From Archangium sp. (GTDB lineage Bacteria > Myxococcota > Myxococcia > Myxococcales > Myxococcaceae): a stretch of 64,000 nt of DNA. Below the pieces are notes generated by a model that saw only the letters and a program-made list of their open reading frames with translations, was not told the DNA's origin and made no database searches. The stretch spans positions 1 through 64,000 of the forward strand of contig JAYVFP010000261.1 in assembly GCA_043773025.1 (NCBI GenBank), given 5' to 3'. The first letter of the stretch is position 1, and the number at the start of each line of letters is the position of its first letter. Below are positions 4,081 to 49,295 of this stretch, in pieces. Position numbers and translations under genes: made by a program.

Positions 4081-4128
4081 CGCCCCGGCTTACACCTCCC
4101 TCGCCCCGAGAGACTGATGAAAGAGGTG

Positions 4129-4355
4129 CCTCGACTCCGCTCGGAACGAACGGACACCGCTCATCCCGAGCGGAGTCGAGGGATTACCTCGTCTTCGAGC
4201 GGCAAGTGCCCCCTCGACTGCGCTCGGGGAGACCGGTGATGAAACCCGATTCCTATTTCCGCCAACCCTCTCGGGACGAACGGACACCGCTCATCCCGAG
4301 CGGTGTCGGCTCGGGGAGACCGGTGATGGAAACCGATTCCTATTTCCGCCAACCC
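4129..4355 (+). repeat. composite dispersed repeat: S module (CCGAGCGGAGTCGAGGG, inverted pair) plus two copies of T module (CTCGGGGAGACCGGTGATGAAACCCGATTCCTATTTCCGCCAACCC)
   Basis: Direct sequence comparison. Related copies occur at 12862-12958, 36477-36501 and 42753-42960. This copy lies 10 bp from the stop of the 1810-aa gene. Confidence 0.8.
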
Positions 4356-4365
4356 GCGGGCGCCG

Positions 4366-7300
4366 TCACCTGGCCCGAGGTTTGCGGCCACGCGAAGGCA
4401 GCGCCTTGAGCAACTCCAGAGCCTCCTTCGTGTGCTGCCAAACAGTCATCGCCTTCACGCTGCCCTCCGAATCGCCCTGAAGCACCGTGCGAGCCGCGAG
4501 CGCGAGCTCCGACAACCGCTCCTGAATGAGCAGCATCTGCATGGCGACCTCTTCGCGGAACGCGCCGTCATTCTCGGAGTTTTGAGCCTGGTTCTTCGCA
4601 TTCAGAGCGATCTGTTCCAACACGGGCCCCAGATCGAGAGGAGCCGCCGCGGCAACCGGCTGAACGCGTACGGCCTCCGACAACTTCTCCAGGTACGGAG
4701 TCAGATCGACTGCCGGCACGTTGTTCTTCGCCAACGACTTCCCGAGCGTGAGCACCGCTTCTCGCAGCCCCTCGAGCCGCGCGCTCACGTCAGGTCGAGG
4801 CTGCGAAATGGCCGCGACCAGCGCATCGATCCGCGGACCCACCAGGTCGACCTTCGGCTCCTGTGAGTCCGTGGGCGCCTTGCGAGCCGCGTCGATGATC
4901 ACGTCCTTGAGCTGACCCAGCTCGACGCCGAGCGACGCAATCGAGCCCGTCACCCGCACCACGGGGTCGTCCTCTGCCCCACCCTGCACCTGGATGCGCT
5001 TGAAGCCGCGCTTGATTTCTTCCCACCTCGTGCGCTGCTCCGGGCTCTGCCGTTTCCGCAGCTCAGCGAGCTTGAGCAGGTTCTGCTCGGCGGCCGCGGT
5101 GAGCGTCTGCGACTCAGAGGCGTAGTGACCATCGAGCAGCACCTCGAGCTCGGCCTCGGTCATCGCGGCGACGATCTTCTCCGCGAGCTTGCTCATGTTG
5201 CGGTAGCTGCCCTGCAGCTTGAAGGGCGGCTCGGTGCGGAACCGATCATCCTGCGAGGCGCTCTTGATGTACTCCTGGTTCACCATCAGCAGCGTCTTCT
5301 GCACGTACGCGAAGCGCCGGGTGACCTCGACGATCTCGTTGAGCTCAGCCGCGCTGTACCCGTGCTCCATCTCGTTGACCGAGATGGGCCCGCCCTGCGC
5401 CATCGCGAGCACCCGGTGCAGATCACCCGTGGACCGCGTGAGCAAGGGCGCGGTGACCGCGTTCGCCGTGAGCGCGTTCTCCAGATAGCTGAGCGCGAAG
5501 AGATCCTTCTTGCCCCCCAAAATGTCGCCCAGGTTGTAGGTGTCGGCACGGTTGGCGAGCATGTCGGGAATGCGGAAGCGCTCGCCTGACTCGGTGTACG
5601 GGTTGCCGGCCATCACCACGCAGAACTTCTTGCCGCGCAGGTCGTACGTGCGCGTGCGGCCATTCCACACGCCTTCGACCTTGCGGGTGGCGTCGCACAA
5701 CGAGATGAACTTCTGCAGCAGCTCGGGGTTCGTGTGCTGGATGTCGTCGAGGTACAGCATCACGTTGTTGCCGAGCTCGAAGCTGAAGTTGATGCGATCG
5801 ACCTCTTGCCGGGCCGTGGCGTTGGGCGCCTCGGTGGGATCGACGCTGACCACCTCGTGACCCAACGACGGGCCGTTCACCTTCACAAAGGTGAGGCCCA
5901 GGCGGCTGGCGACGTACTCCATCAACGTGGTCTTGCCGTAGCCGGGTGGTGAGACGAGGAGCAACAGGCCCATGCGATCGGTGCGTTTGTTCTCACCTGC
6001 CACGCCGAGCTGCTTGGCGAGGTTGGCGCCGATCAGCGGCAGGTAGACCTCGTCGATGAGCCGGTTGCGCACGAAGCTCGAGAGCACCTTGGGCTTGAGC
6101 TCCTCGAGCCGCAGCTTGTGGCGGGCCTCGTCGAGCAGCACGCGCACCCTGGCGCGGTACTTCTGCCAGGAAGGCGTGCGCTCTTCGCGGAACCAGGTCA
6201 TGCGCTGCTCGAGCTCGTCGATGCGCACGGTGAGGCTCTGCGAGGTGATGCGCGGGTGCTGGCCGAGCAGACCTTTCGCTTCGAAGGCGAGCGGCGCCGA
6301 CGAGATGGCGCGTGACAACACGTGTTCGTCAGCCGCGATCAACGCCGCCGCTTCGGGAACGACGAGCAACCAATCGGCCGAGCGGGGCCCCGCCTGCTTC
6401 GCGTGCGCCTCCAGCCACTCCCGCGCGAGGCGGAACCGGCCGGCCACATCGCCTTCGAGCGCGCGCAGATCGTCGTCGAACACCAGCCGCTGGCCGGCGA
6501 GATCGAGCGAGCTGAAGAGATCATCACGCAGCGCGATCGCATCACCTGCGACCACGAAGCGCAGCGGCTCCTGCGCCAGCTCTTCTGCGAGGTACCGCGC
6601 GGCGACGGCCAGCTCAGGCGCGCTCACCTTGAGCCGCGAGCTCTCCACGAAGGTCTTGAGCGACGGCGTCAGCTCGTTCGCCACCGTCTCGAGCGCTGCG
6701 CTCCCCGGGTACCGCACCCGCAGCCGGCCCAGGCTCATCGCGCGCCGGTGGAACGCGGTCTTCAGCGTCTCGTCGCGCCAGCCCGCCCAGCACAAGGTGG
6801 CCAGCGTGCGAGGCCACGAAGGGAACCGCAGCAGATCCGCGCCTTCGTACACCTTGAGCAACTGCCCCAGGATGATCGCGGCATCTGAGTCATGCACGCC
6901 GCGCTCGTACCCATCGTCGAGCCGCTGCTGACTCCACTCACGGGTGATCGCGAGCAACCCCGCGCCCCGTTCAGCCGCGTGGAGCGAAGCCAGCGTCAGC
7001 CCCTTCTCACCCGACTCCGCCGCCTTGAGGATCAAGTGCGCGAGGAACTCGCCGCGGTACACCTCGGGTGATTCAGAGGTGAGGTTCTGATCCCAATACG
7101 CGCGCGCGGCGTCGATGTCGGGATCGCTGAGGCGCTGCAGGTAGTCAGAGCCCGACAGCTGAAGATACAGCCCGTCTTCGCGCGGAATGACCGTCGCTTC
7201 GAGCGGCTGCGTGTTCACGTTGAAGCGATACGGCCCCAGCTTCACCACCGCGGTGCCGCCCTCGAAGAGATCCTTGCGATCTCTGAGCTGCCGCAGCGCA

Positions 7301-9798
7301 TCTTGCTTGGCGGTCTTGAGCCGCGAGTCGAGCTCATCGGCCTTCACCGAGTCTTGCAGGGCCAACAACTGCGCGGTCAGGCTGCGCAGCTTCTGAATCA
7401 TCGGGTCGGCGGCGAAGTAGGTGTTGAGCTCGTCGTCGGTCGCGAACACCCTCCTCGTCACCGACTGCAGAATGCGATCGGCCGCGTCGAACAGGTTCTG
7501 CGCGCGCCGGTTGCGCTCGTCGACCAGCACCTGCTTGCGGCGCCCGAAGGCCTCGAGCAGCTCTTCACGACGGGTGGTCAGCTCGGCTGCGAACTCGTCG
7601 AAGTCCGAGAAACGCCCCTCCATCTCTTCGAGCTGCAAGGTGAGCCTGGTGAGCTGCTCGTCACACTTCTCGGGGCTGTCGACCAACGACAAGGCGCTGT
7701 CGATGCTCTGCGCGAACAGCTTGAACTGGCTCGCGAACTCACCGCGTTTCTCCGTACCGGTGAGCTCCTTCTTCTTCGCCTGCACCGTGGCGCGCGCGCG
7801 GTTCAGCTTCGAGAACACCTCAGAGATGTCTTCGAGGATCTTCGCCTTCTGCGTGGGGTCGCCCGCGTTGAGCCCGCCCACCACTTCACCCAGCAACGAG
7901 AGGCCGGCGCTCAGGCGCTCCACCTCGGTGACCAGCGGCGCCAGCTCGACGGTCTTGGTGACCTTGTCGGTCTGCACCGCCACCACGTGAACGCCCGCGT
8001 GCAGGGGCTCGAAGGCTTTAGGGGTGAGCAAGAACTCGACGCACCGCTTCGAGACGTCCTCGAAGGCCTTTCGCACTTCGTTTTCCATCGCCTCGATCTT
8101 CGGCAGCTCGATGTACCGAACCTCGCGCACCGTGATCAGGTGACCGAGCTGTTTGCGCAGCTCGGCCAGCGTGTCCATGAACGCGTCGGTGGTGGCGAGG
8201 TCGTCGGTGGTGACCTTCGAGAGCAGCGCCTGCTGCGTCGTGGTGGCCTGGCCGAGCGCTTCGGCCGCGCGGCGCTGCATCGAGAGCACCTTCTCGAACT
8301 CGTCGACGATGAGCTCAGCGTTCTTCTTGAGCTCGACGATGATCGGCAGCAGCGCGACTTCGGCGTGGCCCAGCCAGTGGAACTGGTCGATCACCCGGGT
8401 GCACGAAGAGATCAGCGCTTCATAGGTGCGGCGGGTCACCTGCTGCGCTTCAGCCAGCCGCTGCAGCGTGAGCACCTCAGAGATCCCGCGCACCAGCTCG
8501 GCGTTGCCCAGCTTGCCCAGCGCACCCTGCGGCGTCGGCGCGTTCGCCGCGAACTCGGCTGAGACGAACGGCGTCTGCCAGACCTGCACCGGATGAATGC
8601 GCGTGGGCTCATCAGAGGTGGCGCGGAAGACCACCATCTGCCCGTCGGGAAAAATGGAATAGCCGTGGCAGGTGATGGGCGCTGCGATCTCCTTGCGCAC
8701 CAGGTTGTACGGAAACAACACGTACTTGCCCTGGGCACGCTCGAAGAAGACGTAGAGCACGTCTTCTCCGTTGGGGCTGACCACCTTGCGCTGGAAGACG
8801 AGGCCACCGACGTCGGCCTCGAAGACCTTCGCTTCGCCGGTCTGCAGCACGAAGCCGCCGGGGAAGATGATGCCCTGCTCTTCGGGCAACGAGACACACG
8901 ACTGGCCAATCGCGTCAGCGCGGGTGACCTGGCGGGTGCGGGTGTTGAAGACGAGGTAGCGGTACGCGTCTTCGCGGAACGGCAACACCTTCAAGAGGAT
9001 CAACGCGCCGATGCGCACGAACCAGAACTCGGCGTCGTCGAGCGACTGGATCGCCTCGTGAACGGGCTCGACGTAGATGCCCTGCCCCGTCTCGGTGTTG
9101 TTCTCTATCTTGATGGTGAGATCGCCGCCCACCGTCTCGATGAAGAGTTCATCGAGGATGTTCACGTGCGGGTGCCGGCCCAACACGAAGTTCTCGCGCG
9201 TGGCCCGCGTGTATTCGAAGTCGTGCGTGGGCGGGATCACCACGTCGGCATCGCCGCGGTTGTCGAGGTACGTCAGCCGCCCCGAGGTATCGACCCCGAA
9301 ACGCAGCACCTTCACGTCGCGCAGCGTGTGGCCCGTCTTGAAGGTGGCCAGCAGCCGCGACTCGTTCTTCTCGAGGTGGTTGAGCCGCGCGTCTTTGTAG
9401 AAACGGAAGAGCTCTTCGAAGTCCTTCACGAAGCCGCGGTCTTCCAGGAAGCCGTGGCCGTCGCTGCGCGGCAGCTCTGAGAAGTCGAACGTGCCGTCGG
9501 CCCCGCGCACGAACTTGTGCAGCGAGAACGCGTCTTTCACCGAGCGATCCTGCTTGAGCCCCATGAAGACGTTGAACCCGAGGAGCAGGTGCTGCCCCAC
9601 CGGCACGATGTCGCGCGGCACGCAGTTGTGCTCGGTGCGCACCCGCTCGGTGGCGAGCACGGCGAGCTCCTGCCCGCCGAACTCGGTGCGGCGCCGCGTG
9701 TTGAGCGCGTTGGTGCGCTCGCCCAATGACTTGGCGGTCGTCAGCAAGCGGCCACGAATCACCTCGTAGCTGCCACCGGCCATCGTGTCGGAGGCCAC
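4366..9798 (-). CDS. giant (1810 aa) coiled-coil protein with MoxR/AAA_5-like ATPase module
   Basis: Single uninterrupted ORF. Walker A LLLVSPPGYGKTT, Walker B VMLYLDDIQ (DD variant). MoxR-like downstream signature NPELLQKFISL...FCVVMAGNP...RFRIPDMLANRAD at about aa 1235-1400. About 700 aa of E/L/K/R-rich predicted coiled coil lies between an N-terminal ~430-aa globular region and the ATPase. The GTG start overlaps the flotillin stop (TAAGTG); an alternative ATG lies at 9783. Confidence 0.7.
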   Translation of the reverse strand: MASDTMAGGSYEVIRGRLLTTAKSLGERTNALNTRRRTEFGGQELAVLATERVRTEHNCVPRDIVPVGQHLLLGFNVFMGLKQDRSVKDAFSLHKFVRGADGTFDFSELPRSDGHGFLEDRGFVKDFEELFRFYKDARLNHLEKNESRLLATFKTGHTLRDVKVLRFGVDTSGRLTYLDNRGDADVVIPPTHDFEYTRATRENFVLGRHPHVNILDELFIETVGGDLTIKIENNTETGQGIYVEPVHEAIQSLDDAEFWFVRIGALILLKVLPFREDAYRYLVFNTRTRQVTRADAIGQSCVSLPEEQGIIFPGGFVLQTGEAKVFEADVGGLVFQRKVVSPNGEDVLYVFFERAQGKYVLFPYNLVRKEIAAPITCHGYSIFPDGQMVVFRATSDEPTRIHPVQVWQTPFVSAEFAANAPTPQGALGKLGNAELVRGISEVLTLQRLAEAQQVTRRTYEALISSCTRVIDQFHWLGHAEVALLPIIVELKKNAELIVDEFEKVLSMQRRAAEALGQATTTQQALLSKVTTDDLATTDAFMDTLAELRKQLGHLITVREVRYIELPKIEAMENEVRKAFEDVSKRCVEFLLTPKAFEPLHAGVHVVAVQTDKVTKTVELAPLVTEVERLSAGLSLLGEVVGGLNAGDPTQKAKILEDISEVFSKLNRARATVQAKKKELTGTEKRGEFASQFKLFAQSIDSALSLVDSPEKCDEQLTRLTLQLEEMEGRFSDFDEFAAELTTRREELLEAFGRRKQVLVDERNRRAQNLFDAADRILQSVTRRVFATDDELNTYFAADPMIQKLRSLTAQLLALQDSVKADELDSRLKTAKQDALRQLRDRKDLFEGGTAVVKLGPYRFNVNTQPLEATVIPREDGLYLQLSGSDYLQRLSDPDIDAARAYWDQNLTSESPEVYRGEFLAHLILKAAESGEKGLTLASLHAAERGAGLLAITREWSQQRLDDGYERGVHDSDAAIILGQLLKVYEGADLLRFPSWPRTLATLCWAGWRDETLKTAFHRRAMSLGRLRVRYPGSAALETVANELTPSLKTFVESSRLKVSAPELAVAARYLAEELAQEPLRFVVAGDAIALRDDLFSSLDLAGQRLVFDDDLRALEGDVAGRFRLAREWLEAHAKQAGPRSADWLLVVPEAAALIAADEHVLSRAISSAPLAFEAKGLLGQHPRITSQSLTVRIDELEQRMTWFREERTPSWQKYRARVRVLLDEARHKLRLEELKPKVLSSFVRNRLIDEVYLPLIGANLAKQLGVAGENKRTDRMGLLLLVSPPGYGKTTLMEYVASRLGLTFVKVNGPSLGHEVVSVDPTEAPNATARQEVDRINFSFELGNNVMLYLDDIQHTNPELLQKFISLCDATRKVEGVWNGRTRTYDLRGKKFCVVMAGNPYTESGERFRIPDMLANRADTYNLGDILGGKKDLFALSYLENALTANAVTAPLLTRSTGDLHRVLAMAQGGPISVNEMEHGYSAAELNEIVEVTRRFAYVQKTLLMVNQEYIKSASQDDRFRTEPPFKLQGSYRNMSKLAEKIVAAMTEAELEVLLDGHYASESQTLTAAAEQNLLKLAELRKRQSPEQRTRWEEIKRGFKRIQVQGGAEDDPVVRVTGSIASLGVELGQLKDVIIDAARKAPTDSQEPKVDLVGPRIDALVAAISQPRPDVSARLEGLREAVLTLGKSLAKNNVPAVDLTPYLEKLSEAVRVQPVAAAAPLDLGPVLEQIALNAKNQAQNSENDGAFREEVAMQMLLIQERLSELALAARTVLQGDSEGSVKAMTVWQHTKEALELLKALPSRGRKPRAR

Positions 9799-11898
9799 TT
9801 ACTTCTTCTCTTTGCCGGCGAACTTCGCGAGCAGCGCAGCAGCCGCCAGGTTCTGAGCGTCAGCCGTGATGCCGGGCTTCGAGAGCACGTCCTTGATGTC
9901 TTGCGGCAGCTCGCGCTCACCGGTGAGGTAGGGCTTGAGCAGGGTCTTCATGGTGTCGGTGCTGGTCGCGGTCGCTTCCACGGCGTGAGAGAGCGTGACG
10001 GCCTTGACGAACTGGTCGAAGAACTGACCGTCGCCGCCCACGATGTTGATCTTCGCGTTGGCGAGCGCCGCCGACATGGTCTGCGCCTGGCTGGCCGCGA
10101 TGTCCTTGCGCACGTGCAGCGTCTCGAGCTCGATCTGCTTGTCCTTCTCGAGCCGCAGGCGGAACTCTTCGTGGTCCTTGGTGGCGCCCTGGAGCTGAGC
10201 CATCGACTTCGCCTTCTCCGAGAGGCCCTTCGCTTCGGCGAGCAGCTTTTCCTGAATACCGAGCGCTTCGGCCATCACCTTCGAGCGGGTCGCCTCGCCT
10301 TCGGCAGCGCCCTGCTTCTGCGTGGCTTCGGCCTGCGCCTCGAGCACCTTGGCGGCAGACAGCCCCTTCTGCAGATCGCCTTCGGCTTCGGCCAGCATCC
10401 TCAAGCGCAGCACGTTGGCCGCGGCCTGGCCCTGCTTCTCGGTCGCGACGGCATCGGCTTCACGCACGCGTACCTGGGCAAGCCCCTGCTTCTCCTGCGC
10501 CAGCGCGGTCGCTTCGAGCACGCGGGCCTCAGCGAGGCCTTCCGCTGCCGACTCCGCCTGCGTGCCTTCCGCCATGCGGATCTTCGCGCGGGCTTCCTTG
10601 TCGGCCGACTCGAGCGCCGCGTCGGCGACGATCAGCCGCTGACGGGCTTCATGTTTGGCCACTTCTTCGGAGGCCTCAGCCGCCTTCACGCGTTCGATCG
10701 ACAGGCCCTGCGCGAGCGCCTCGGCGTCGATGATCGCAGCGTCTTTCTTGCGCTGCGACTCGGCGACCATGCGCAACTGCTTGATGCTCTCTTCTTCGGT
10801 GGCGACCTTCTTGTCGACCGCGATGCGGGTCGAGATGACGTCGGCGATCGCCTTGCGCTCGATCTCAAGCGCCTTCTCCTTGCTGATGCGCATCAGCTCG
10901 ACTTCGCGTTCACGAGAGATGGCCTCGAGCGCACGATCCTTCGCCACGCGCTCGGTCTCGATGCCCACCACGCGCTCGCGGTTCTTCTCGGCGACCTGTA
11001 CCTGGCGCTGCTTGTTCTGCTCGTTGATCTGCAGCTCTTCTTCTGAGCGCACGCGGGACAGCTCGGCCTTCAGGTGCTCTTCTTGCTGCACGCGCTGGGT
11101 CTCGGCCTGCTCGCGCGCCTGAATGGTGTCGATCTCGCGCTTCTGCTTGGCCTGCGCTTCGGCGCGCTGACGCTCGAGCGCGAAGACGGCTTCGTCGGCC
11201 TCGACGTTCTGCTTCATCATCTTCTTCCGCTCGTCCTGCCGAAAGTCGTTGGTGAGCACGTTCTGAATGGTGGTCAGTTCGGTGATCTTCCGAATGCCCT
11301 GCGCGTCGAGAATGTTCTCGCGATCGAGCATCTCGATCGGCGTCTGCTCGAGGAAGTCGATGGCGACGTCTTCGAGCATGTAGCCGTTGAGATCCTTACC
11401 GACGACCGAGACGATCTGGTCCTTGAAGACCTCACGCTCCTTGTAGAGGTCTTCGAAGTTGAGCCGCTTGCCGACGGTCTTGAGCCCTTCTGAGAACTTG
11501 GCCTCGAAGAGCTCCTGCAGCGTGGCGAGATCAGAGGCGCGCACGCAGCCGACGGCGCCGGCCACCTTGAGCACGTCTTCGACGGTCTTGTTCACGCGCA
11601 CGAAGAAGCTGACCTTGATGTCCGCGCGGATGTTGTCGGCGCAGATGAGGCCCTGCTTGCCGTGGCGGTGGATCTCGATGGTCTTCAGCGAGATGTCCAT
11701 CACCTCGGAGCGGTTGATGATCGGGATCACCACGGCTCCGGTGAACGACACCTTGGGCTCGGCCTTCATGGTGTTGACGATCAACACCTGGCCTTGCGCG
11801 ACCTGCTTGTAGAAGCGCGCCAGCACGAAGCCGAAGGCGAGGACGAACAGAAGCCCGATGCCGATGACCGAGGCGATGAGAATTAGGGTTGCTTCCAT
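9799..11898 (-). CDS. flotillin-like SPFH/band-7 protein (YqiK family)
   Basis: 699 aa. N-terminal TM helix, then SPFH domain (..VIPIINRSEVMDISLKTIE..), then a long EA/Q-rich coiled-coil tail typical of flotillins. Strong SD (AGGGGGAAG) before the ATG. Confidence 0.85.
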   Translation of the reverse strand: MEATLILIASVIGIGLLFVLAFGFVLARFYKQVAQGQVLIVNTMKAEPKVSFTGAVVIPIINRSEVMDISLKTIEIHRHGKQGLICADNIRADIKVSFFVRVNKTVEDVLKVAGAVGCVRASDLATLQELFEAKFSEGLKTVGKRLNFEDLYKEREVFKDQIVSVVGKDLNGYMLEDVAIDFLEQTPIEMLDRENILDAQGIRKITELTTIQNVLTNDFRQDERKKMMKQNVEADEAVFALERQRAEAQAKQKREIDTIQAREQAETQRVQQEEHLKAELSRVRSEEELQINEQNKQRQVQVAEKNRERVVGIETERVAKDRALEAISREREVELMRISKEKALEIERKAIADVISTRIAVDKKVATEEESIKQLRMVAESQRKKDAAIIDAEALAQGLSIERVKAAEASEEVAKHEARQRLIVADAALESADKEARAKIRMAEGTQAESAAEGLAEARVLEATALAQEKQGLAQVRVREADAVATEKQGQAAANVLRLRMLAEAEGDLQKGLSAAKVLEAQAEATQKQGAAEGEATRSKVMAEALGIQEKLLAEAKGLSEKAKSMAQLQGATKDHEEFRLRLEKDKQIELETLHVRKDIAASQAQTMSAALANAKINIVGGDGQFFDQFVKAVTLSHAVEATATSTDTMKTLLKPYLTGERELPQDIKDVLSKPGITADAQNLAAAALLAKFAGKEKK

Positions 11899-11940
11899 GA
11901 TGGTACTTCCCCCTGATGGGTGACTTCGTGGGACGACGGC

Positions 11941-12693
11941 TCAGCGCCGCCGGACCCGACCGGAGATGATCTGCGCCGCCCGGGTCGGGTCGTTCAGCGC
12001 TTCGATTTCTTGAGGCATCAGCCAGTCAATCGGCTCGATTTCGTAGGTGTCCTGGGCCGAGTCGAAGTCGACCAGGATCGCGCGGTCGCCCTTCTTGAGC
12101 GTGTTCGCCTTGGGGCAGATCACGTGCACGTTGAGCCCGGCTGCTCCGTCGTCGACCTGCGCGGTGCCGAAGGTGGCATCCACCCGGCCTGAGGTGATGG
12201 TGCAGATCTGCCCAAGCGAATCACGCCTCCGCGCGGGCCGGCTCTGATCGAGCGCCTTGCCCAACGGCCGCAGCAACACCGCGGCGCCCAGCAGGCCGCC
12301 CACCAGCGAGATCAACAGCAGCGCCGATTGAAAGAGGACGTTCGCCGGCGCGAGAAGGAGCGTGCCGAGGGTGCTCACCGCCCAGGCGGAGAGCGCGATG
12401 ACGCTCAAGGTGATGGTGATGGGGACCTTGCCCAGACCCAGTGTGGCCAGGACACCCGCTTCCGCGCGGTCGCCCAGGTCTGCGTCGTGATCGCCGGCCA
12501 CCGCCTCGACCGTGCCCTTGATTGCGCCCGTGGTCGCGTCGCCGATTGCCTTCACGCCGCCCGTCACCGCGTCACCACCATGAAAGGCGGCGCCCGTCAC
12601 CAGCGCGAAGATCCAATACCCCACCACGACGCCCAACAGCACGGTCAGCGGCACCGTGGGGAAGCTCGTGATGGCCTGAAGGAACGGGTCCAT
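11941..12693 (-). CDS. NfeD-like membrane protein (YqiJ family; TM region plus C-terminal OB fold)
   Basis: Hydrophobic N-terminal half. C-terminal GQICTITSGRVDATFGTAQVDDGAAGLNVHVICPKANTLKKGDRAILVDFD is an NfeD/YqiJ OB-fold. It sits 42 nt upstream of the flotillin gene. Start chosen at the internal ATG (MDPFLQAI..); the ORF track extends to 12891. Confidence 0.65.
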   Translation of the reverse strand: MDPFLQAITSFPTVPLTVLLGVVVGYWIFALVTGAAFHGGDAVTGGVKAIGDATTGAIKGTVEAVAGDHDADLGDRAEAGVLATLGLGKVPITITLSVIALSAWAVSTLGTLLLAPANVLFQSALLLISLVGGLLGAAVLLRPLGKALDQSRPARRRDSLGQICTITSGRVDATFGTAQVDDGAAGLNVHVICPKANTLKKGDRAILVDFDSAQDTYEIEPIDWLMPQEIEALNDPTRAAQIISGRVRRR

Positions 12694-12861
12694 GAAGTGG
12701 CGCGGACTCGACCAGTCGCGGGCCCAAACATCAACCTGTTCCGACTGCCGATTTCCCCCCGAAAGTTCCGCATTTTCTCGACGGAGCACGACAGGCATGA
12801 GGCGTTTTGGCGCTCGCCTGAAACCCACTGTCCATTCTTCTGGGTGGCCATCCATCCAGAG

Positions 12862-12958
12862 TGGAGTCGAGGGATTGACTCTCCGTCGCACTGCAAGTGC
12901 CCCCTCGACTGGGCTCGGGGAGACCGGTGTGGAAGCCGATTCCTATTTCCGCCAAGGT
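12862..12958 (+). repeat. dispersed repeat copy (S-like plus one T module)
   Basis: GGAGTCGAGGGATTGAC...AGTGCCCCCTCGACTGGGCTCGGGGAGACCGGTGTGGAAGCCGATTCCTATTTCCGCCAAGG. Same orientation as the 4129-4355 copy. It abuts the stop codon of the DUF309 gene. Confidence 0.8.
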
Positions 12959-13536
12959 TACTGAGCGTCGTCGCGGCTCAACGAAACGCTCAGGTGATTG
13001 CCGTCACGGTGCACCTGCACCTCCCAGGGCCGGCAGCACACCGGGCAGTCTTCGATGTAGTGCGCGTCTTCGGCCTCTTCCGGGGCCACGCTGACCATCA
13101 CCGGCTCTCCGCAGTACGGGCAGCGCGCTTCGTGATCGAAACTTTCACCCGCGGTCAGCGAGCCGTTCTCGGGCCACAGCGGCCGGGCCTCGTCACGCCA
13201 GGGCCCCTGCGCGTGCTCGAGGCTGGTGACCAACCGTTCACGCAGGCCATCGACGTCGATGCCGTCGAACGCGTCACCGACTTCCCCCAACCGCTCCAGC
13301 GCGCGCAGCAGCAGCCGGTTCGCGCCCAGTTCCTTGCCTTGCGTGTGGTGATGAAGCGCCGCCGACCAGAGCACCAACACCTGCAGCACCCGCTTCTCCG
13401 GGCCGCGCGTCTGGCGCCAGCCAGATTCCCACGCTTCGTGGGCAGCGAAGAACTCGCCTGCTTCGAAACGCTTCCGGCCCTCGTCGAGCGAGGCAATAAA
13501 GGTCGGTGAAGCCATGGCGAGGAGTAACGCGGTCAA
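12958..13536 (-). CDS. DUF309-like N-terminal domain fused to CPxCG zinc-ribbon domain (hypothetical)
   Basis: 192 aa. N-terminal FEAGEFFAAHEAWE...W is the DUF309 signature. C-terminal CPYCGEP...CPVCCRPWE resembles the Cys-rich CPxCG family. Confidence 0.55.
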   Translation of the reverse strand: MTALLLAMASPTFIASLDEGRKRFEAGEFFAAHEAWESGWRQTRGPEKRVLQVLVLWSAALHHHTQGKELGANRLLLRALERLGEVGDAFDGIDVDGLRERLVTSLEHAQGPWRDEARPLWPENGSLTAGESFDHEARCPYCGEPVMVSVAPEEAEDAHYIEDCPVCCRPWEVQVHRDGNHLSVSLSRDDAQ

Positions 13537-21649: not shown

Positions 21650-21672
21650 CCCTCTCCCCCTCGGGGAGAGGG
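21650..21672. repeat. REP-like hairpin CCCTCTCCCC-CTC-GGGGAGAGGG between convergent genes (likely bidirectional terminator)
   Basis: Perfect 10-bp inverted repeat located between the stop of the YdjC gene (21640) and the stop of the TSP3 gene (21683). Confidence 0.6.
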
Positions 21673-21682
21673 AATTGATGGA

Positions 21683-24205
21683 TCACCCGATCTCAGGATC
21701 GCAGCTGCAGGTCGCCTGGTTGCAGATGAACCCAGTGCCGCACCCGCCGCAGTTGCTCGAGCACACGCACGACTTCTGACCGGGATCACAGACCAGCGGC
21801 GCCACGCACGTACCGCCGCACGCATCGCCGTTCGGATCGGCCGAGTTGTCGTTCCAGTACTTGTAGCTGACGGCCACCTGAACACCGGCCGCGCTGGGGA
21901 TGCAGTTACCGAAGAACACGATGCGGCGGGTCGCCGCGTCGATGTCCCAGCCATTGGTGCGATCGCGCGGAATGTCAGCCCTGTTGCAAGTGCCGCGCGT
22001 GGTGGCGACAGCGACCTTGATGGTGGCGGAGATCGGCGGACGCTGCAGCTGCGTGCCAGTGCCTCCGATGACCGCTGTCAGGATTGCGTCGATCGTCGCC
22101 GCCTGTTGCGCGGTCTGCTGAGCCGTGGGGTTGGTCGGGTTGAACAGTCGGATGTCGCCGATGACGCCTCCCGTCGCGCGAATGAGCTGATGGTACTTGC
22201 CCGGGCTGGTCTCACTGGCCGGGTCGCCGCAGTTGCCGCCCTCATTGCAGACGATGCCATGCGCCACCGCGCGGGTCGTGATGCGCTGATTCAAGTACGA
22301 CTGCATCGCAGCCGCCGTGATGCCCGACTGCTCGCTCGTATCGGTGAGGAAGATGAAGTGCGCCTGGGCGTCGGGTCGAAACGGCCCTCCCACCCGTCCT
22401 GCCACTCCGCTCATGAACGTCTGAACGCCGGCAAACCCCTGCTCGCTCCCGTCACCAGCGATGCCAAACGCGCCAGCGCCACTGAACCAGGAGTTCATGG
22501 TGCCGAGGTCGTTCGTCCATTCCTTCTTTGAGCCGGTGTAGCTCGAGGGGAACCAGCCGGTCGACACACCCGCGGCGCGCCAATCGAGACCCGCGGAAGC
22601 CAGCTTGGCCCCAAAGAGACTGCCCGCGTTCGCGACGGCCGTCTGAGAGGTCTCCATCGAGCAGCTGTCGTCGACCACCCACACGAAATCGACCTTCTGA
22701 TTGACAGCAGCCGCGAAGACCTCGCATTGCGTGTTGGCGAAGTCGCCCAGTTGCGCCAGCGCGGTGCCGTTCGCGGTGTCATCCACTCTGAATTGCGTCT
22801 GCGGGGTGTAGAGGCTCGCCGGAATGAGGGCGATCACCACCACCGCGCGCGTAGGGGTGCGGCGCACGTACTCGGCGACCACCTTGAAGGGCCCGTTGAC
22901 GCCCGCCATGCCCGGCAAGAGCCCGGTCGCGTTCATGCCCAGGTAGTTCTGCGCAATGGCGTTGATGCGCGTCTTCAGGTCTGCCGTGCCGCTGACGTCA
23001 TAAGTCGCGCGCACCGAACCTGCAAAGCCGTCCCAGGTCGTAAAGGTCTGAGTCAGCGCGCCCGAGGTACCCGTCATCTTCGATCGGCCATCTGCCTCTT
23101 CTGCGCTGCCGTCGCCGCCCGCAGGGATCTTCGAGATGGCGATGCCGCCGATCTTCGTCGTCGCGTCATAGAAGACGAAGCCCGCCTCTTCATTGCCCGT
23201 GCCGGTGACGCGATTGACGCGGCTGACCTCAGCAAACTCCGGCACGAGCGCCAGTTGCACGTCGCTCGCGCCGCTGGAGTGGAAGGTGATCGGCCGGAGG
23301 TTCTGCGTCGCGCACGCCTGCTGCGCCACGCCCATGCCGTCGCCCATGTTGGTGGGGTTCAGCTCGCCCATGTCGACACGGCCGTTCAAGTTCGTGTCTT
23401 CGGCGCCGTCTTGAATGCCGTCGCCATCGCTGTCTGCGTTGCACGCGTTGGTGGTGACGCCGTTGTCCGCGTCGTAGGTCGCCACCGTGTACCTGCAGCC
23501 CGTGGGATCCGCTCCGACCGGCTGCAGGCCACCCTCGACGCCGTCGGGCAGACCATCACCATCGGTGTCGCGCTTGGTGCCATCGGTCACGCACCCCCCA
23601 GCCATCATCCGCTCCTCGCCGTCAGAATAGCCGTCGCAGTCGGAGTCCTTCTTCACGGGGTCGGTCTCGGTCGGCTGCCTGCGCCCGTCGCGGTTGGCGT
23701 CTTCAGCGCCATCGCTCACGCCGTCGCCGTCGGTGTCGGCCACAGTGGGGTTCGACTTCGAGTTGGTGTCTGCGTCGGCCACGAAGGTCGCGCCGCACGC
23801 GGTCGAGACGGTCGTCGCCTTGCCCATCTCGACGCCATCGGAGACGCCATCGCCGTCAGAATCGGAGTTGCACGGGTTGGTGCGCGCGCCGGTGCCGTAT
23901 TCTTCCGCGTCGGAGAGCCCGTCGCAGTCGGTGTCGCGGGTGAGGTTTGCCGAGCCGAGGGCGGGATCGCAGCCCGTGGTGACGTTGCCGCCACCCGTGC
24001 CCGTGCCGCCGCCATTGCCGGTGCCGCCCCCCAAACCGCCGCCGTTGCCCGGGCCGCTGCCCGTGCCGATCGTCGCGCGGCATTCACCCATCGTGCAGAC
24101 CTGGCCACTCTGACAATCGGTGAAGGTGGTGCACTTCGGAGCCGTCGTGCAGGAACACGCCGAGACGAACGCGCTCGCAAGCGCAACCCAGAACAATCGA
24201 ACCAT
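21683..24205 (-). CDS. secreted protein with thrombospondin type-3 (Ca-binding DxDxDG) repeats and VWA-like domain
   Basis: 840 aa with signal peptide and Cys-rich N-terminus. Many D.DGDG.SD motifs. VWA-like block VDFVWVVDDSCSM. Confidence 0.6.
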   Translation of the reverse strand: MVRLFWVALASAFVSACSCTTAPKCTTFTDCQSGQVCTMGECRATIGTGSGPGNGGGLGGGTGNGGGTGTGGGNVTTGCDPALGSANLTRDTDCDGLSDAEEYGTGARTNPCNSDSDGDGVSDGVEMGKATTVSTACGATFVADADTNSKSNPTVADTDGDGVSDGAEDANRDGRRQPTETDPVKKDSDCDGYSDGEERMMAGGCVTDGTKRDTDGDGLPDGVEGGLQPVGADPTGCRYTVATYDADNGVTTNACNADSDGDGIQDGAEDTNLNGRVDMGELNPTNMGDGMGVAQQACATQNLRPITFHSSGASDVQLALVPEFAEVSRVNRVTGTGNEEAGFVFYDATTKIGGIAISKIPAGGDGSAEEADGRSKMTGTSGALTQTFTTWDGFAGSVRATYDVSGTADLKTRINAIAQNYLGMNATGLLPGMAGVNGPFKVVAEYVRRTPTRAVVVIALIPASLYTPQTQFRVDDTANGTALAQLGDFANTQCEVFAAAVNQKVDFVWVVDDSCSMETSQTAVANAGSLFGAKLASAGLDWRAAGVSTGWFPSSYTGSKKEWTNDLGTMNSWFSGAGAFGIAGDGSEQGFAGVQTFMSGVAGRVGGPFRPDAQAHFIFLTDTSEQSGITAAAMQSYLNQRITTRAVAHGIVCNEGGNCGDPASETSPGKYHQLIRATGGVIGDIRLFNPTNPTAQQTAQQAATIDAILTAVIGGTGTQLQRPPISATIKVAVATTRGTCNRADIPRDRTNGWDIDAATRRIVFFGNCIPSAAGVQVAVSYKYWNDNSADPNGDACGGTCVAPLVCDPGQKSCVCSSNCGGCGTGFICNQATCSCDPEIG

Positions 24206-35395: not shown

Positions 35396-36457
35396 GTGAG
35401 TGACGTTCGACTCGTCGGAATCAAGAAGAGCTTCGGTGACAACGTGATCGTCCGCGGTGTGGACCTCGACGTGACGCCAGGCGAGTTTCTCGTGATGGTC
35501 GGGCCGTCGGGCTGCGGCAAGACCACGCTCCTGCGCATCATCGCGGGCCTCGAGCAGGCCGACTCCGGTGACATCGTCATCGGAGGAAAGAACATGAACG
35601 AGGTGCCACCGCGCGAACGCGACGTGGGCATGGTCTTTCAGAGCTACGCGCTCTACCCGCACATGACGGTGAAGGAGAACATGGCCTTCGGTCTCGAGCT
35701 GCGCAAGGTGCCCCGCCCCGAGATCGAGAGCCGCGTCGCCGAGGCCGCCCGCATGCTGGAGTTGGGCCCGCTGCTCGAGCGGAAACCGAAGGCGCTCTCG
35801 GGTGGTCAACGCCAGCGCGTGGCGATGGGCCGGGTGATCGTGCGCCGGCCGCAGCTGTTCTTGTTCGATGAGCCGCTCTCGAACCTCGACACCGCGCTGC
35901 GCGTGCAGATGCGCGGTGAGCTGGCGCGGCTGCATCGCGCGCTGGGTGTGACAATGATCTACGTGACGCACGATCAGGTCGAGGCCATGACGCTGGCGAC
36001 GCGGGTGGCGGTGTTCAACAAGGGCGTGCTGCAGCAACTGGGTGCTCCGCTCGAGCTCTACAACAAGCCCACCAACGCCTTCGTGGCGCAGTTTCTCGGC
36101 TCGCCTTCGATGAACCTGATCGACGCGAAGCGGGAGGGCGCGCAGTTCGTGGGTGCGGGGTTCACGCTCCCGGCGGTGGGCGATACGGGTGGCGAAGTGA
36201 AGTTGGGGCTGCGGCCTCAGGATCTTCGCGTGGCCAGTGAGGGTCCGCTGCGCGGTGAGGTCGAGGCGGTCGAGCGGCTGGGCTTCGATGGCTACGCGTT
36301 CTTGAAGACCGCGGCGGGTTCGATCGCGGCTCGGTTCGAAGGCGCTGACGTGCAGGTCGGGCAGAACGTGGCGGTTCAGCCGATGGGCGACGTGCTGCAC
36401 ATCTTCAGCGCGGATGGCGCGAAGGCGCTGCGTCACCCTGAGGCGAGAGGTGCGTAG
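35396..36457 (+). CDS. malK: sugar ABC transporter ATP-binding protein (MalK/UgpC family)
   Basis: GPSGCGKTT Walker A, LSGGQRQRVAMGR signature, LFDEPLSNLD Walker B, and a C-terminal MalK-type regulatory/TOBE domain. GTG start. Confidence 0.85.
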   Translation: MSDVRLVGIKKSFGDNVIVRGVDLDVTPGEFLVMVGPSGCGKTTLLRIIAGLEQADSGDIVIGGKNMNEVPPRERDVGMVFQSYALYPHMTVKENMAFGLELRKVPRPEIESRVAEAARMLELGPLLERKPKALSGGQRQRVAMGRVIVRRPQLFLFDEPLSNLDTALRVQMRGELARLHRALGVTMIYVTHDQVEAMTLATRVAVFNKGVLQQLGAPLELYNKPTNAFVAQFLGSPSMNLIDAKREGAQFVGAGFTLPAVGDTGGEVKLGLRPQDLRVASEGPLRGEVEAVERLGFDGYAFLKTAAGSIAARFEGADVQVGQNVAVQPMGDVLHIFSADGAKALRHPEARGA

Positions 36458-38684
36458 CGCCGCAGACGACCGTTCTCCCCGAGCGCAGTCGAGGGGGCAC
36501 TCGCGCTCCGGAGCAGAGGTACTCCACCCGGGAGGACCGGGGTGCGCCCTGCTTCTCGTCTTCGTCTCGCAGCTCGCCTTCGCAGACGCCCCGGTGCTCA
36601 AGCTCTGGCACGGCTACCGCGGCGGCGAGGAGCAGGCGATCGAACAAGCCGCCAAACAATTCACCGCGCTGACCGGCACGCAGGTCGAGCTGCTCGCGGT
36701 GCCGTACGACGCGCTGAGCTCGAAGCTCACCTCGGCCATTCCGCACGACGCGGGCCCTGACGTCTTCATCTTCGCGCACGAGCGGCTGCGGCAATTTCAC
36801 CGCATGAAGATCGTCGCGCCCTCAGGCGAAGGGCTCGATCGATCGAAGTACCTCAAGCCCTCAGTCGACGCGCTCGAGTTGGATGGCGTGCTCTACGGCT
36901 ACCCGCTCTCCATCAAGTGCCTCGCGCTGTTCATGCGCGGAGATCGCGGCCTCACGGTGCCCACCACCACCGCGCAACTCGAGAACGCGCTCACCGAGCG
37001 CAGGCAGAACCAGTTCACGCTCGCGTACGAGGCGGGTGACTTTTACTTCCACGCCCCGATCCTCTTCGGCTTCGGCGGCGTGCTCTTCGACGAGCAGGGC
37101 CGCGCCCAGTTCGACACGCCCGCGATGACGAAGTCGCTGAACTGGGTCAAGTCACTGCAGGATCGCAAGCTGATGCCGCAGGAGGTCTCGGGCGCGTTGG
37201 TGAAGACGCTCTTCAACGAGAACCGCGCGCCGTTCGTGATCACCGGCCCGTGGTTCACCGGCGAAATTGATCCCGGCGTGCCGTACTCGATTCATCCGTT
37301 GCCCACGGTCTCGGAGACCGGCCTGCCCATGGCGCCCTTCCTCGGCGTCGAAGCCGCGTTCGTTTCATCGCGCACCAAACAACCCGAGCTGGCGCAGTCA
37401 TTTGCGAAGTTCCTTTCGCTCGGTGACGCCACGATCGTCCGGGTGACGTTGGGCCGGCAGATCCCCGCTGAGCTCGCCGCGTACGACAACGAGGCCGTCG
37501 CGAAGGATTCGATGATCAGCGCCTTTCGCACGGTGGCCGAACGCGGCACCGCGACGCCCAACACGCTCGAGATGGCGCGCGTGTGGGAGCCGATGAAGCT
37601 CGCGCTCCGGGCCGTGTTGCAGGGCGGCGTCTCACCTGCCGACGCGGGCCAGCTCGCAGAGCGCCGGTACCGCGCGCTCAATCGTGAAGCGCCGCCCACC
37701 ACCACGCCCATTCCCTGGATCATCGGGCTGAGCATCGGCCTGGTCGCCTTCGGCGGGTGGCAGCTGCGGCAAGGCAAGGGCAAGCCCTTCGCGAAGCGCT
37801 ACCCCGAAGCGGGCCGAGGTCTGCTCTACGTCGCGCCGGCTGCGACCGGGCTGTTCGTGCTGGTGGTCATTCCCTTCGTGATCGGGCTCTCGCTCTCGCT
37901 CTTCCACCACGATGCGGGCGAATACACCTTCGTCGGGTTCGCGAACTTCGCCGACATCCTCACCTCGAAGGGCTACCGCATCACCGAGCCCCTCTCGTTC
38001 TACTTCACGCTCGTCGTCACGCTCGCGTGGACGTTGGCGAACGTGGTGCTGCACGTGAGCATCGGGTTGTTCCTGGCGATCCTGCTGAAGGATCCACTGC
38101 TCAAGCTGCGCGGCGTGTACCGGGTGCTGCTGATCGTTCCGTGGGCGGTGCCGAACTACATCACCGCGCTCATGTGGAAGGGCATGTTCCACCAGCAATT
38201 CGGAGCCATCAACGCGATCCTCGGCCACCTCGGCATCGAACCGGTGAGCTGGTTCACCCAGTGGTCGACCTCGTTCGCGGCCAACGTGATCACGAACACC
38301 TGGCTCGGGTTTCCTTTCATGATGGTGGTCTCGCTCGGCGCGCTGCAGTCGATCCCCACCGATCTCTACGAAGCCGCTGAAGTCGACGGCGCCTCGAAGT
38401 GGACGCAGTTCCGCCGCATCACGTTGCCCCTGCTCAAGCCGGCCCTTCTGCCCGCGGTGATCCTCGGCAGCGTGTGGACCTTCAACATGTTCAACATCAT
38501 CTACCTCGTGTCGGGTGGTGAACCGGGCGGAGGAACCGACATCCTCGTGAGCGAGGCGTTTCGCTGGGCGTTCCAACGCAACGAGCAGTACGGCTTTGCC
38601 GCGGCGTACTCGGTGTTGATCTTCTTCGTGCTCTTCGCCTGGTCGCAGGTGACGAAACGCCTTTCGGGTGAGGAGTCCGCGTGA
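36414..38684 (+). CDS. fused maltose/maltodextrin-binding protein (MalE-like SBP) and MalF-like ABC permease
   Basis: Single 756-aa ORF. A cleavable signal (LLLVFVSQLAFA) and an SBP family-1 domain (aa ~50-430) are followed by multiple TM helices and the permease EAA motif (EAAEVDGASKWTQFRRITLP). The true start is uncertain: the ATG at 36414 overlaps malK, and the repeat fragment lies in the 5' region. Confidence 0.7.
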   Translation: MARRRCVTLRREVRSAADDRSPRAQSRGHSRSGAEVLHPGGPGCALLLVFVSQLAFADAPVLKLWHGYRGGEEQAIEQAAKQFTALTGTQVELLAVPYDALSSKLTSAIPHDAGPDVFIFAHERLRQFHRMKIVAPSGEGLDRSKYLKPSVDALELDGVLYGYPLSIKCLALFMRGDRGLTVPTTTAQLENALTERRQNQFTLAYEAGDFYFHAPILFGFGGVLFDEQGRAQFDTPAMTKSLNWVKSLQDRKLMPQEVSGALVKTLFNENRAPFVITGPWFTGEIDPGVPYSIHPLPTVSETGLPMAPFLGVEAAFVSSRTKQPELAQSFAKFLSLGDATIVRVTLGRQIPAELAAYDNEAVAKDSMISAFRTVAERGTATPNTLEMARVWEPMKLALRAVLQGGVSPADAGQLAERRYRALNREAPPTTTPIPWIIGLSIGLVAFGGWQLRQGKGKPFAKRYPEAGRGLLYVAPAATGLFVLVVIPFVIGLSLSLFHHDAGEYTFVGFANFADILTSKGYRITEPLSFYFTLVVTLAWTLANVVLHVSIGLFLAILLKDPLLKLRGVYRVLLIVPWAVPNYITALMWKGMFHQQFGAINAILGHLGIEPVSWFTQWSTSFAANVITNTWLGFPFMMVVSLGALQSIPTDLYEAAEVDGASKWTQFRRITLPLLKPALLPAVILGSVWTFNMFNIIYLVSGGEPGGGTDILVSEAFRWAFQRNEQYGFAAAYSVLIFFVLFAWSQVTKRLSGEESA
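36477..36501 (-). repeat. fragment of the dispersed repeat family (reverse complement of AGTGCCCCCTCGACTGCGCTCGGGG) in the malK-malEF spacer
   Basis: CCCCGAGCGCAGTCGAGGGGGCACT read directly from the sequence. Confidence 0.7.
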
Positions 38685-42708: not shown

Positions 42709-42752
42709 GCACCTGACGACAGTGAAGCTGATCGGTTGGCTGCGTTCACACC

Positions 42753-42960
42753 GGTCATCCCGAGAGGGTCGGCGGAAAGAGGAATCGGGTTCCATCACCG
42801 GTCTCCCCGAGAGGGTTGACGGAAATAGGAATCGGGTTCCGTCACCGGTCTCCCCGAGAGGGTTGACGGAAATAGGAATCGGGTTCCGTCACCGGTCTCC
42901 CCGAGCCCAGTCGAGGGGGCACTTCCGCATCGCGCAACAGTGGCATCTCGACTGCGCTCG
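42753..42960 (-). repeat. dispersed repeat copy in inverted orientation: three tandem 47-bp T modules plus S-like modules
   Basis: GGCGGAAA(G/T)AGGAATCGGGTTCC(A/G)TCACCGGTCTCCCCGAGAGGGTT, three times, then CCCAGTCGAGGGGGCACT. Begins 45 bp after the stop of the TIG-repeat gene. Confidence 0.8.
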
Positions 42961-43127
42961 ATGCGAACGGTGTGGGCTGTTCCTTTGGAGCGGTGAGCGG
43001 TTCTCGATCGGTCAGAATCACTGTGGCGAAGTACGAGCGGAACTGATCGGGCGTCGACACGCCGTGCTCACGCTCCTCTCGCTGGTCCTGGCATCGGTGA
43101 AGATGCCGACGCCTGTGAATCACTTCG

Positions 43128-49109: not shown

Positions 49110-49183
49110 CGAGGAGTAGGGGATTTGAACCCCTGACCTTCGGCGTGACAGGCCGACGTTCTAACCAGCTGAACTAACTCCCC
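49110..49183 (-). tRNA. tRNA-Asp (anticodon GTC)
   Basis: Reverse complement GGGGAGTTAGTTCAGCTGGTTAGAACGTCGGCCTGTCACGCCGAAGGTCAGGGGTTCAAATCCCCTACTCCTCG folds as a cloverleaf. Anticodon loop CTGTCAC. T-arm GGTTCAAATCC. Confidence 0.9.
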
Positions 49184-49223: not shown

Positions 49224-49295
49224 TAGGCGGAACAGGTTTCGAACCTGTGACCCTCGCCGTGTAAAGGCGACGCTCTACCGCTGAGCTATCCGCCC
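49224..49295 (-). tRNA. tRNA-Val (anticodon TAC)
   Basis: Reverse complement GGGCGGATAGCTCAGCGGTAGAGCGTCGCCTTTACACGGCGAGGGTCACAGGTTCGAAACCTGTTCCGCCT. Anticodon loop TTTACAC. T-arm GGTTCGAAACC. Confidence 0.9.

Follow-up and report, generated by a model that had tools for sequence, protein, structure and literature searches.

The directly repeated sequences that bracket a three-gene flotillin/giant-ATPase operon in an uncultured Myxococcaceae lineage are very probably ordinary copies of a dispersed, mosaic, extragenic repeat family, and their bracketing of the operon is incidental. We conclude that this family, built from a palindromic unit (S) and a stackable unit (T), belongs with the REP/BIME/BOX-like mosaic extragenic repeats and has not been described before. 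The window, the whole stretch of DNA analyzed, comprises 64,000 nt from Archangium sp. (Myxococcaceae; GCA_043773025.1, contig JAYVFP010000261.1, positions 1 to 64,000). A sequence-only reading of it had proposed that the repeats could mark the operon as a mobilized or recombination-prone cassette or could reflect a MITE-like insertion preference at operon boundaries, and that, either way, they set the operon apart as a discrete module.

The operon and the repeats at its flanks

The bracketed operon and the gene upstream of it both lie on the minus strand:

4366..12693, minus: three-gene operon (protein with no family hit, flotillin/YqiK-like protein, giant ATPase)
11941..12693, minus: first gene of the operon, 250-aa protein, ATG at 12693
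9799..11898, minus: flotillin/YqiK-like protein, 699 aa
4366..9798, minus: giant DUF3686-DUF7902-AAA protein, 1810 aa, TGA stop at 4366..4368
12694..12852, minus: leader/promoter region of the operon, not repeat (alignments with relatives)
12958..13536, minus: DUF309/zinc-ribbon gene, upstream neighbor of the operon, TAA stop

The first gene product, earlier called NfeD, matched nothing in Pfam or NCBIfam. Neither these databases nor PADLOC revealed a transposase or integrase in or beside the operon. A defense island was rejected as a candidate, PADLOC having given weak P-loop noise only across the operon and its neighbors. We assign 12694..12852 to the operon's own leader/promoter, outside the repeat, because relatives without the repeat also have it. 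The repeat copies at the two flanks are as follows:

4309..4355, minus: T module copy 1 (GGGTTGGCGGAAATAGGAATCGG...CACCGGTCTCCCCGAGC on the minus strand), nhmmer E=7e-16, beginning 10 nt past the giant gene's TGA
4270..4308, minus: junction piece, an S right-arm tail (CCGCTCGGGATGAGCGGTGT) fused to an S left-arm head (CCGTTCGTCCCGAG)
4222..4268, minus: T module copy 2 (repeat-family detection and nhmmer)
4125..4237, minus: S arms (arm nhmmer matches; fold z=-7.8), with a left arm at 4210..4237, then a right and left inverted pair at 4125..4185 (stem ~25 bp)
12913..12958, minus: single T module, directly abutting the TAA of the DUF309/zinc-ribbon gene
12853..12928, minus: S hairpin, left arm 12901..12928, right arm ~12853..12880

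The two flanks are unequal in make-up: the 285-bp downstream spacer (4081..4365) holds two T modules and ~3.5 S arms, whereas the upstream copy consists of one T and one hairpin. Within the former, the junction piece recurs at 4137..4178 (42 nt, 93%), and an exact 25-mer is present twice. The sequence-only reading had described the composite at 4129..4355 correctly, as two T modules with an S inverted pair 10 bp beyond the stop. Its placement of the upstream copy at 12862..12958 held for the end that abuts the neighbor's stop and for the distance of about 160-170 bp from the ATG at 12693, but the copy begins at ~12853. The flanks align on the same strand (4162..4265 against 12853..12955) with 90 of 104 positions identical (86.5%), far above chance, as 0 matches are expected in shuffled sequence; thus, the same-orientation repeats are real. 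The T cores share 41-42 of 44 positions (93-95%).

Two copies with 86.5% identity over 104 nt, in direct orientation and 8.7 kb apart, could in principle serve, like any dispersed repeat, as a substrate for RecA-mediated exchange that deletes or duplicates the operon. In E. coli, 23-27 bp is the minimum usually quoted for efficient homologous exchange through RecBCD. The longest unbroken identical block here is only ~20 nt, below that minimum, which disfavors a recombination-prone operon. Further, the operon is present at every orthologous locus fetched (L001-L005 and L068-L072), with no deletion variant, and the argument would apply equally to every neighboring pair of copies. Biologically relevant exchange between these flanks is thus improbable.

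Orthologous loci and the probable origin of the bracketing

The comparison with relatives bears on the proposal that the repeats are the ends of a composite element that brought the 8.5-kb unit to this locus. Eight related loci (82-97% identity) carry the operon without the flanking copies and in the same gene order, specifically BKACE, DUF309, small protein, flotillin, and giant ATPase. The empty sites that the sequence-only reading had suggested seeking were found in four relatives: S and T are absent from both spacers in L069 and L070 (96% flotillin identity), as well as in L004 (89%) and L005 (82%). Of the remaining close relatives, L068 (97%) has an S hairpin alone, at the upstream site, and L001 (97%) has a downstream spacer of 72 bp with a different palindrome. 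Weak S-like remnants occur at the upstream site in L001, L004, and L005. Given these remnants, the S at the upstream site may be old and may have been lost in L069 and L070, rather than gained in the lineage of the window. The relatives' spacers at these gene ends hold a different, small palindrome family, and the aligned downstream spacer of L069 contains only such a family-2 palindrome.

The same-orientation copies at both ends would fit a mobilized cassette, as would the more distant relatives: the three operon genes are conserved across the Myxococcaceae, including Myxococcus hansupus and Archangium minus, where they lie beside different neighbors (a topoisomerase IB is upstream) and where both S and T are absent. 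However, the eight orthologous loci keep the neighborhood without the repeats, the two repeats differ in make-up, no target duplication is visible, no transposase or integrase lies in or next to the unit, and the other copies in the window flank unrelated genes. Nor is the composition of the operon foreign, as a cassette might have led one to expect: GC is ~0.65 across the operon and its neighbors, and the GC3 of the operon (0.88-0.89) matches that of the neighbors (0.82-0.88). The cassette reading is therefore largely refuted, and we consider it scarcely tenable. A dispersed family and orthologous operons without flanking copies, the two observations that the sequence-only reading had itself named as telling against its proposal, are essentially what we found.

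The bracketing is very probably no more than a product of where copies settle. Copies accumulate in spacers a few to tens of nucleotides past stop codons, and their T-to-S direction tends to match that of the gene ending at that point. Where transcription units on one strand succeed each other, a copy after the stop of one unit is automatically also the same-orientation "upstream" copy of the next. Both flanks appear as direct repeats because orientation follows the upstream gene and both copies follow minus-strand genes. The copies at the operon were probably gained in the window's own lineage, into a pre-existing gene order.

Architecture, distribution, and context of the S/T family

Within the window, the family occupies four sites, all intergenic, which are a sample only of the source genome. 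In addition to the two operon flanks, copies lie on the other strand:

36469..36525, plus: S-only copy (T tail and left arm), 12 nt past the stop of a MalK-like ABC ATPase gene
42749..42906, plus: tandem T array (period 47, 94% matches over 3.3 copies) past the stop of a TIG-domain gene
42891..42972, plus: S hairpin after the T array (repeat-family detection and arm search)

The copy at 36469 sits inside an ABC sugar-transporter operon, between the MalK-like gene and a binding-protein/permease gene, which overlap by 4 bp in three related loci (L075, L076, and L077). Its position shows that the family is not tied to operon edges. The suggested MITE-like preference for operon boundaries thus comes close as a site preference, but one for spacers just 3' of stop codons generally. 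A CRISPR-like reading of the T array was rejected, as its units run head-to-tail with spacers absent, and a retron reading likewise, as no reverse transcriptase gene is among the annotated genes beside the repeat sites.

Each S unit is palindromic, with a loop of 15-30 nt between arms of ~26 nt (ACCGTTCnCCCCGAGCnnAGTCGAGGGG ... CCCTCGACTnnGCTCGGGnnGAACGG), and its arms occur as such inverted pairs both in the window and in the fetched loci. The T unit is 47 nt long, its 3' end carries the same 15 nt with which the S arm begins, and its modules stack in tandem, with one to three (3.3) copies per site in the window. The six T copies of the window are 90-96% alike. Their exact core pattern has five matches within the window and 0 in public genome and metagenome collections, because T diverges between genomes (sister MAGs carry diverged variants) and the source genome is absent from the collections searched. 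The window copies bear T on a single side, whereas some copies from sister MAGs (for example, L008, L025, L034, and L048) also bear an inverted T' on the opposite side (T-S-loop-S'-T').

The S-arm junction pattern was found in at least 62 stretches, of which at least 50 are in four sister Myxococcaceae MAGs (at least 18, 14, 12, and 6, respectively) and at least 12 are in other phyla. With four sites in the window and so many stretches elsewhere, the repeats do not mark this operon as a discrete module. NCBI labels the MAGs of the lineage carrying the family "Archangium sp." The arm also occurs in Sphingomonadales, and as a 27-nt sequence it is nearly exact across Myxococcota, Sphingomonadales, and one Verrucomicrobia MAG. 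The ends of several MAG contigs lie 70-100 nt away from a copy, a pattern that fits assemblies breaking at a multicopy repeat.

Genomic context was scored at loci selected for containing an S arm, with genes called by a crude ORF picker based on GC3. Of the 50 clusters that could be classified, 44 (~88%) were intergenic, and the median distance from stop codon to arm was 39 nt. In 16 of 21 T arrays, among them all three T sites of the window, the 5' side lay just past the stop codon of a gene running in the same direction (binomial p=0.013). Inspection of ~0.5 Mb of loci revealed no transposase beside copies, and genes flanked by arms on both sides look ordinary. At three sites where filled and empty spacers were compared, no target-site duplication was seen; the neighboring spacer sequence in filled sites is replaced rather than cleanly interrupted.

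The positions immediately 3' of stop codons and the orientation bias could also be explained if the repeats were not selfish or neutral insertions but regulatory modules selected by the host, for example, 3'-end hairpins, terminators, stabilizers, or protein-binding sites, with the operon and its neighbor needing insulation. The predicted coding-strand hairpins are very stable (-154 kcal/mol, z=-7.8, for 4100..4370), the different palindrome in the relatives' spacers suggests that some hairpin usually resides at these gene ends, and the intra-operon copy at 36469 resembles the classic malE-malF REP of E. coli. However, no U-tract terminators were called at the repeats: a consensus scan found no intrinsic terminator at 4081..4365 or 12694..12957, the tail after the main hairpin is merely TCTTTCAT, and a promoter scan was likewise empty at the repeats. 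Only two tRNAs in the window reach the Rfam gathering score, and a relaxed threshold gave, at the repeat, only generic noise in the form of sub-threshold microRNA-precursor hairpins. Moreover, L069 and L070 have neither S nor T at either operon spacer, and the make-up of the copies varies freely among sites. At the variable dinucleotide of the S arm, 22 of 58 arm pairs are fully complementary; this covariation is weak, and we therefore make no claim of selection on hairpin structure. Host selection is thus possible but rather unlikely as the main explanation.

Relation to known repeat systems and implications

The BOX elements of Streptococcus pneumoniae (boxA-boxB(n)-boxC) are intergenic and contain a ~45-nt internal module in variable tandem number beside hairpin-forming neighbors. 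The S/T family is similarly modular, with a tandem unit (T, 47 nt, 1-3.3 copies) beside hairpins, but it is unrelated to BOX in sequence and host phylum, and T stands outside the palindrome instead of being enclosed by two dissimilar end modules. The REP/BIME sequences of enterobacteria and the REPINs of Pseudomonas are, like S/T, short, imperfect, multicopy extragenic palindromes (PMC3116915, PMC3337134). They share with S/T an arrangement often in inverted pairs, mosaics with other conserved motifs, a location between convergent or co-directional genes (in some cases within transporter operons), a presence that varies between close relatives, and genome-specific sequence variants. In contrast, the S/T arms are longer (~26 nt), show no sequence similarity to these families, and could not be linked to a RAYT transposase by inspection of the ~0.5 Mb of loci. 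Further, REPIN-RAYT systems are described as mostly vertically inherited (PMC3116915, PMC3337134), while the S/T arm recurs in another phylum (Sphingomonadales).

Bacterial MITEs are also non-coding, small (~100-230 nt), and intergenic and may have an internal tandem repeat, as in the minisatellite-containing MITE of Porphyromonas gingivalis (PMC4596501; reviewed in PMC10969869). The sister-genome copies with inverted T at both ends may resemble them, but the window copies lack the second inverted T, the filled and empty sites compared show no target-site duplication, and no parent insertion sequence sharing their ends turned up in the window or the loci. Composite transposons differ in that the S/T repeats do not travel with cargo, as relatives keep the locus and its neighbors without them. 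In the literature searched, nothing specific turned up on these sequences or on REP or MITE families of myxobacteria.

As to how copies of the mosaic family multiply, neither a transposase beside the copies nor a master element was found, and no parent insertion sequence was seen in the window or the loci. We infer that copies may spread or be homogenized inside a genome through a transposase acting in trans, as REPINs and MITEs do, through gene conversion and slippage at the CCCCGAG junction that the units share, or through both. Genes would tolerate copies at their 3' ends, the strong hairpins having there at most the effect of a barrier at the end of the RNA. It seems distinctly unlikely that S with its stackable T is instead an undescribed non-autonomous mobile element whose arm is common to several phyla. 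If it were, either the element would spread horizontally along with its cognate enzyme or the hairpin would be recognized by a conserved host factor, and the element would compete with the second palindrome family for insertion sites at the 3' ends of genes.

Recognizing the flanking repeats as members of a dispersed family dispels the attractive but mistaken view of the flotillin/giant-ATPase operon as a cassette that is mobile or specially set apart, and it carries no implication for the operon's function. Our results document a mosaic family of extragenic repeats, from an uncultured lineage of myxobacteria, for which we found no description in the literature searched. Their relevance is modest and concerns research on REP-like elements and the annotation and assembly of these genomes, in which the S/T family breaks metagenome assemblies, turns over fast between near-identical genomes, and can separate formerly overlapping genes within an operon.

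Repeat copies on both flanks of the flotillin/giant-ATPase operon

The minus-strand trio at 4366-12693 carries copies of the S/T family on both flanks, S being a palindromic unit with two arms and T a 47-nt module that can be stacked in tandem.

Features of the operon and its flanks
4081-4365: spacer of 285 bp after the giant gene's TGA, with two T modules and several S arms
4125-4185: S-arm inverted pair of the downstream flank, predicted to fold into a ~25-bp stem
4222-4268 and 4309-4355: T modules of the downstream flank, 47 nt each
4366-9798, minus: DUF3686-DUF7902-AAA giant protein, 1810 aa, TGA stop
9799-11898, minus: flotillin/YqiK-like protein, 699 aa
11941-12693, minus: 250-aa protein, first gene of the operon
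~12853 up to the T module: S hairpin of the upstream flank
12913-12958: single T module of the upstream flank, directly after the TAA of the DUF309/zinc-ribbon gene

Aligned on the same strand, the two flanks agree at 90 of 104 positions (86.5%) and their T cores at 41-42 of 44, and shuffled sequence gave no comparable matches to the flank repeats. The sequence-only reading had described these repeats correctly, save for a 9-nt shift in one boundary. It had also taken the bracketing to mark the operon as a discrete module, possibly a mobilised cassette; here the bracketing is read as incidental, given that relatives keep the gene order without S/T and that one copy lies inside an ABC-transporter operon.

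A native operon with variable spacers

GC content is flat across the window (~0.65), and the operon's GC3 (0.88-0.89) is in line with that of neighbouring genes. Further, all three genes are kept in Myxococcus hansupus and Archangium minus, where the neighbours differ and neither S nor T occurs. The operon is a native unit of old standing. Myxococcaceae in general retain this trio (window 4366-12693; comparison loci L073, 8124-16863, and L074, 8069-16961), in which a small unannotated protein is joined by a flotillin/YqiK-like one of ~700 aa and a DUF3686-DUF7902-AAA one of ~1800 aa; the first gene (11941-12693), labelled NfeD in the sequence-only reading, has no Pfam or NCBIfam match.

Close homologues of the flotillin-like protein occur in MAGs of the same lineage.

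Operon spacers in related loci (percentages refer to the flotillin-like protein)
L001-L003, 97%: downstream spacer of 72 bp with a different small palindrome (CCCTCTCCCC...GGGGAGAGGG); upstream spacer without T, with a short degenerate stretch only
L068, 97%: upstream S hairpin without T; contig stops inside the giant gene, the downstream spacer lying outside coverage
L069 and L070, 96%: no S/T at the downstream or upstream spacer
L004, 89%: both spacers without S/T
L005, 82%: both spacers without S/T

The MAG of L068 carries T modules at other places. Gene order (BKACE, DUF309/zinc-ribbon, small protein, flotillin, giant ATPase, 375-aa protein) is kept in L001-L004 and L069, and in L070 and L071 as far as their contigs extend into the giant gene; in L005, additional genes are inserted on each side of the operon. 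Because relatives share this order without S/T, the repeats either entered a gene arrangement already in place or, at a minimum, are freely variable within it. At the upstream site, given weak S-like remnants there in L001, L004 and L005, S may instead be old and have been lost in L069 and L070.

The operon-proximal part of the upstream spacer (12694 to ~12852, minus strand) is conserved in relatives that lack the repeat, and therefore belongs to the operon's own leader. Within this leader (12694-12852), the block GTCGAGAAAATGCGGAACTTTCG and its surroundings are largely conserved as far as the 82% relative; this block could act as a promoter or as a site for a regulator.

Dispersal and placement of the family

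Two further S/T copies lie in the window, on the strand opposite to the operon flanks.

36469-36525, plus: S-only copy
42749-42972, plus: 3.3-copy tandem T array with an S hairpin

The large minus-strand gene 21683-24205 contains a separate, degenerate 35-nt repeat (five copies, 23400-23935), which probably encodes a recurring protein motif.

The exact T pattern had no match in two public collections (genome and metagenome), and the S-arm junction ACCGnTCnCCCCGAGCnnAGTCGAGGG matched at least 62 stretches in the collection scan: at least 18, 14, 12 and 6 loci in four sister 'Archangium sp.'/Myxococcaceae MAGs, and at least 12 elsewhere (Sphingomonadales, with an isolate Sphingomonas genome among them, plus an unclassified alphaproteobacterial chromosome and two MAGs, one from Verrucomicrobia and one deltaproteobacterial). 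Read from copies among the matches listed, the general S unit is a palindrome with arms of ~26 nt and a loop of 15-30 nt, often with a T-like module 5' of it; some copies have an inverted T on the other side as well. T modules adjoined S arms in 30 of 30 sister-MAG cases, at loci selected for S arms; T sequence varies from genome to genome in these MAGs, and the six T copies of the window are 90-96% alike.

Several MAG contigs (L016, L017, L033, L052, L066; MAG ant_bin.566) terminate within 70-100 nt of an S copy. Two entire contigs of ~3 kb have such a copy at each end, and metagenome assemblies of this lineage are evidently broken up by the repeat.

The 27-nt junction, in which 23 bases are specified, was found with its inverted partner outside Myxococcota as well, in the isolate Sphingomonas genome among others (Sphingomonadales and other Alphaproteobacteria, L009, L037, L040, L042, L046, L050, L058, L059, L064 and L067; Verrucomicrobia MAG, L057), which by our estimate is far above chance expectation. 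The near-identical arm in Sphingomonadales is the one mildly surprising point, and may reflect horizontal spread or a shared constraint.

Gene context came from simple gene calling by GC3, which picks out the genes expected in the window. Among the matches listed, 44 of 50 classifiable S clusters were intergenic (21 between co-directional, 15 between convergent and 8 between divergent genes), with a median of 39 nt from stop codon to S arm. The 5' side of the T array lay just past a co-directional gene's stop in 16 of 21 arrays (p=0.013), including all three window T sites. Since T arrays tend to orient with the gene ending there, and both operon-flanking copies come after minus-strand genes, these two share the same, 'direct', orientation; a copy past the upstream gene's stop necessarily also precedes the transcription unit that comes next.

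The element does not mark operon edges. Specifically, the 36469 S copy lies within one ABC sugar-transporter operon, between a MalK-like ATPase gene and a binding-protein/permease fusion gene, two genes with a 4-bp overlap in three relatives (L075, 4824-4827; L076, 4833-4836; L077, 4866-4869); the window has ~85 nt extra here (36457-36545), and the insertion has thereby uncoupled two cistrons that once overlapped. The window also has two paralogous segments of ABC-transporter ATPase genes, at 35480-35925 and 59105-59562, which share 72-77% identity across a distance of 23.6 kb.

At the point matching the 36469 copy, L075 has a second family of small dispersed palindromes, CCCTCnCCCC(GACCCTCTCCCC)...GGGGAGAGGG, which also occurs in other intergenic spacers.

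Second palindrome family
Window: 2909-2941; 21650-21672; 57359-57385
Relatives: L001, 17547-17581; L075, 4787-4810; L076, 10694-10732

In relatives, it follows the giant gene and the TIG-domain gene, where the window has S/T copies, so that gene 3' ends in this lineage serve at least two palindrome families as common landing pads.

Likely nature of the element

The S/T family is dispersed, extragenic, near stop codons and orientation-biased; close relatives differ in whether a site is occupied, each genome has T variants of its own, and the predicted hairpins are strong. A transposase acting in trans could have spread the family, and/or gene conversion homogenised it, and T arrays may grow through slippage where units share the CCCCGAG junction. 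Neither a transposase nor a parent element turned up in loci next to copies, and comparing filled with empty sites revealed no target duplication. Copies would be tolerated at 3' ends, or play a mild part at the RNA 3' end; a dedicated function is argued against by the lack of a U-tract terminator at the repeats, the lack of an Rfam family match, weak covariation of the arms and empty sites in close relatives. The sole Rfam matches in the window are two neighbouring minus-strand tRNA genes (49110-49183 and 49224-49295).

Among the kinds of element closest to S/T are the REP/BIME mosaics of enterobacteria and pneumococcal BOX elements, the latter containing a tandem middle module. Pseudomonas REPINs (PMC3116915, PMC3337134) and bacterial MITEs (PMC10969869, PMC4596501) also belong here; MITE target duplication was not seen for S/T. 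On this comparison, the family appears to behave like REP/BIME, REPIN, BOX and MITE elements, membership in any single one not being established, and no description of its sequence was found in the literature searched. The flanking repeats are a genuine observation of ordinary significance: they belong to an undescribed family within a familiar class.
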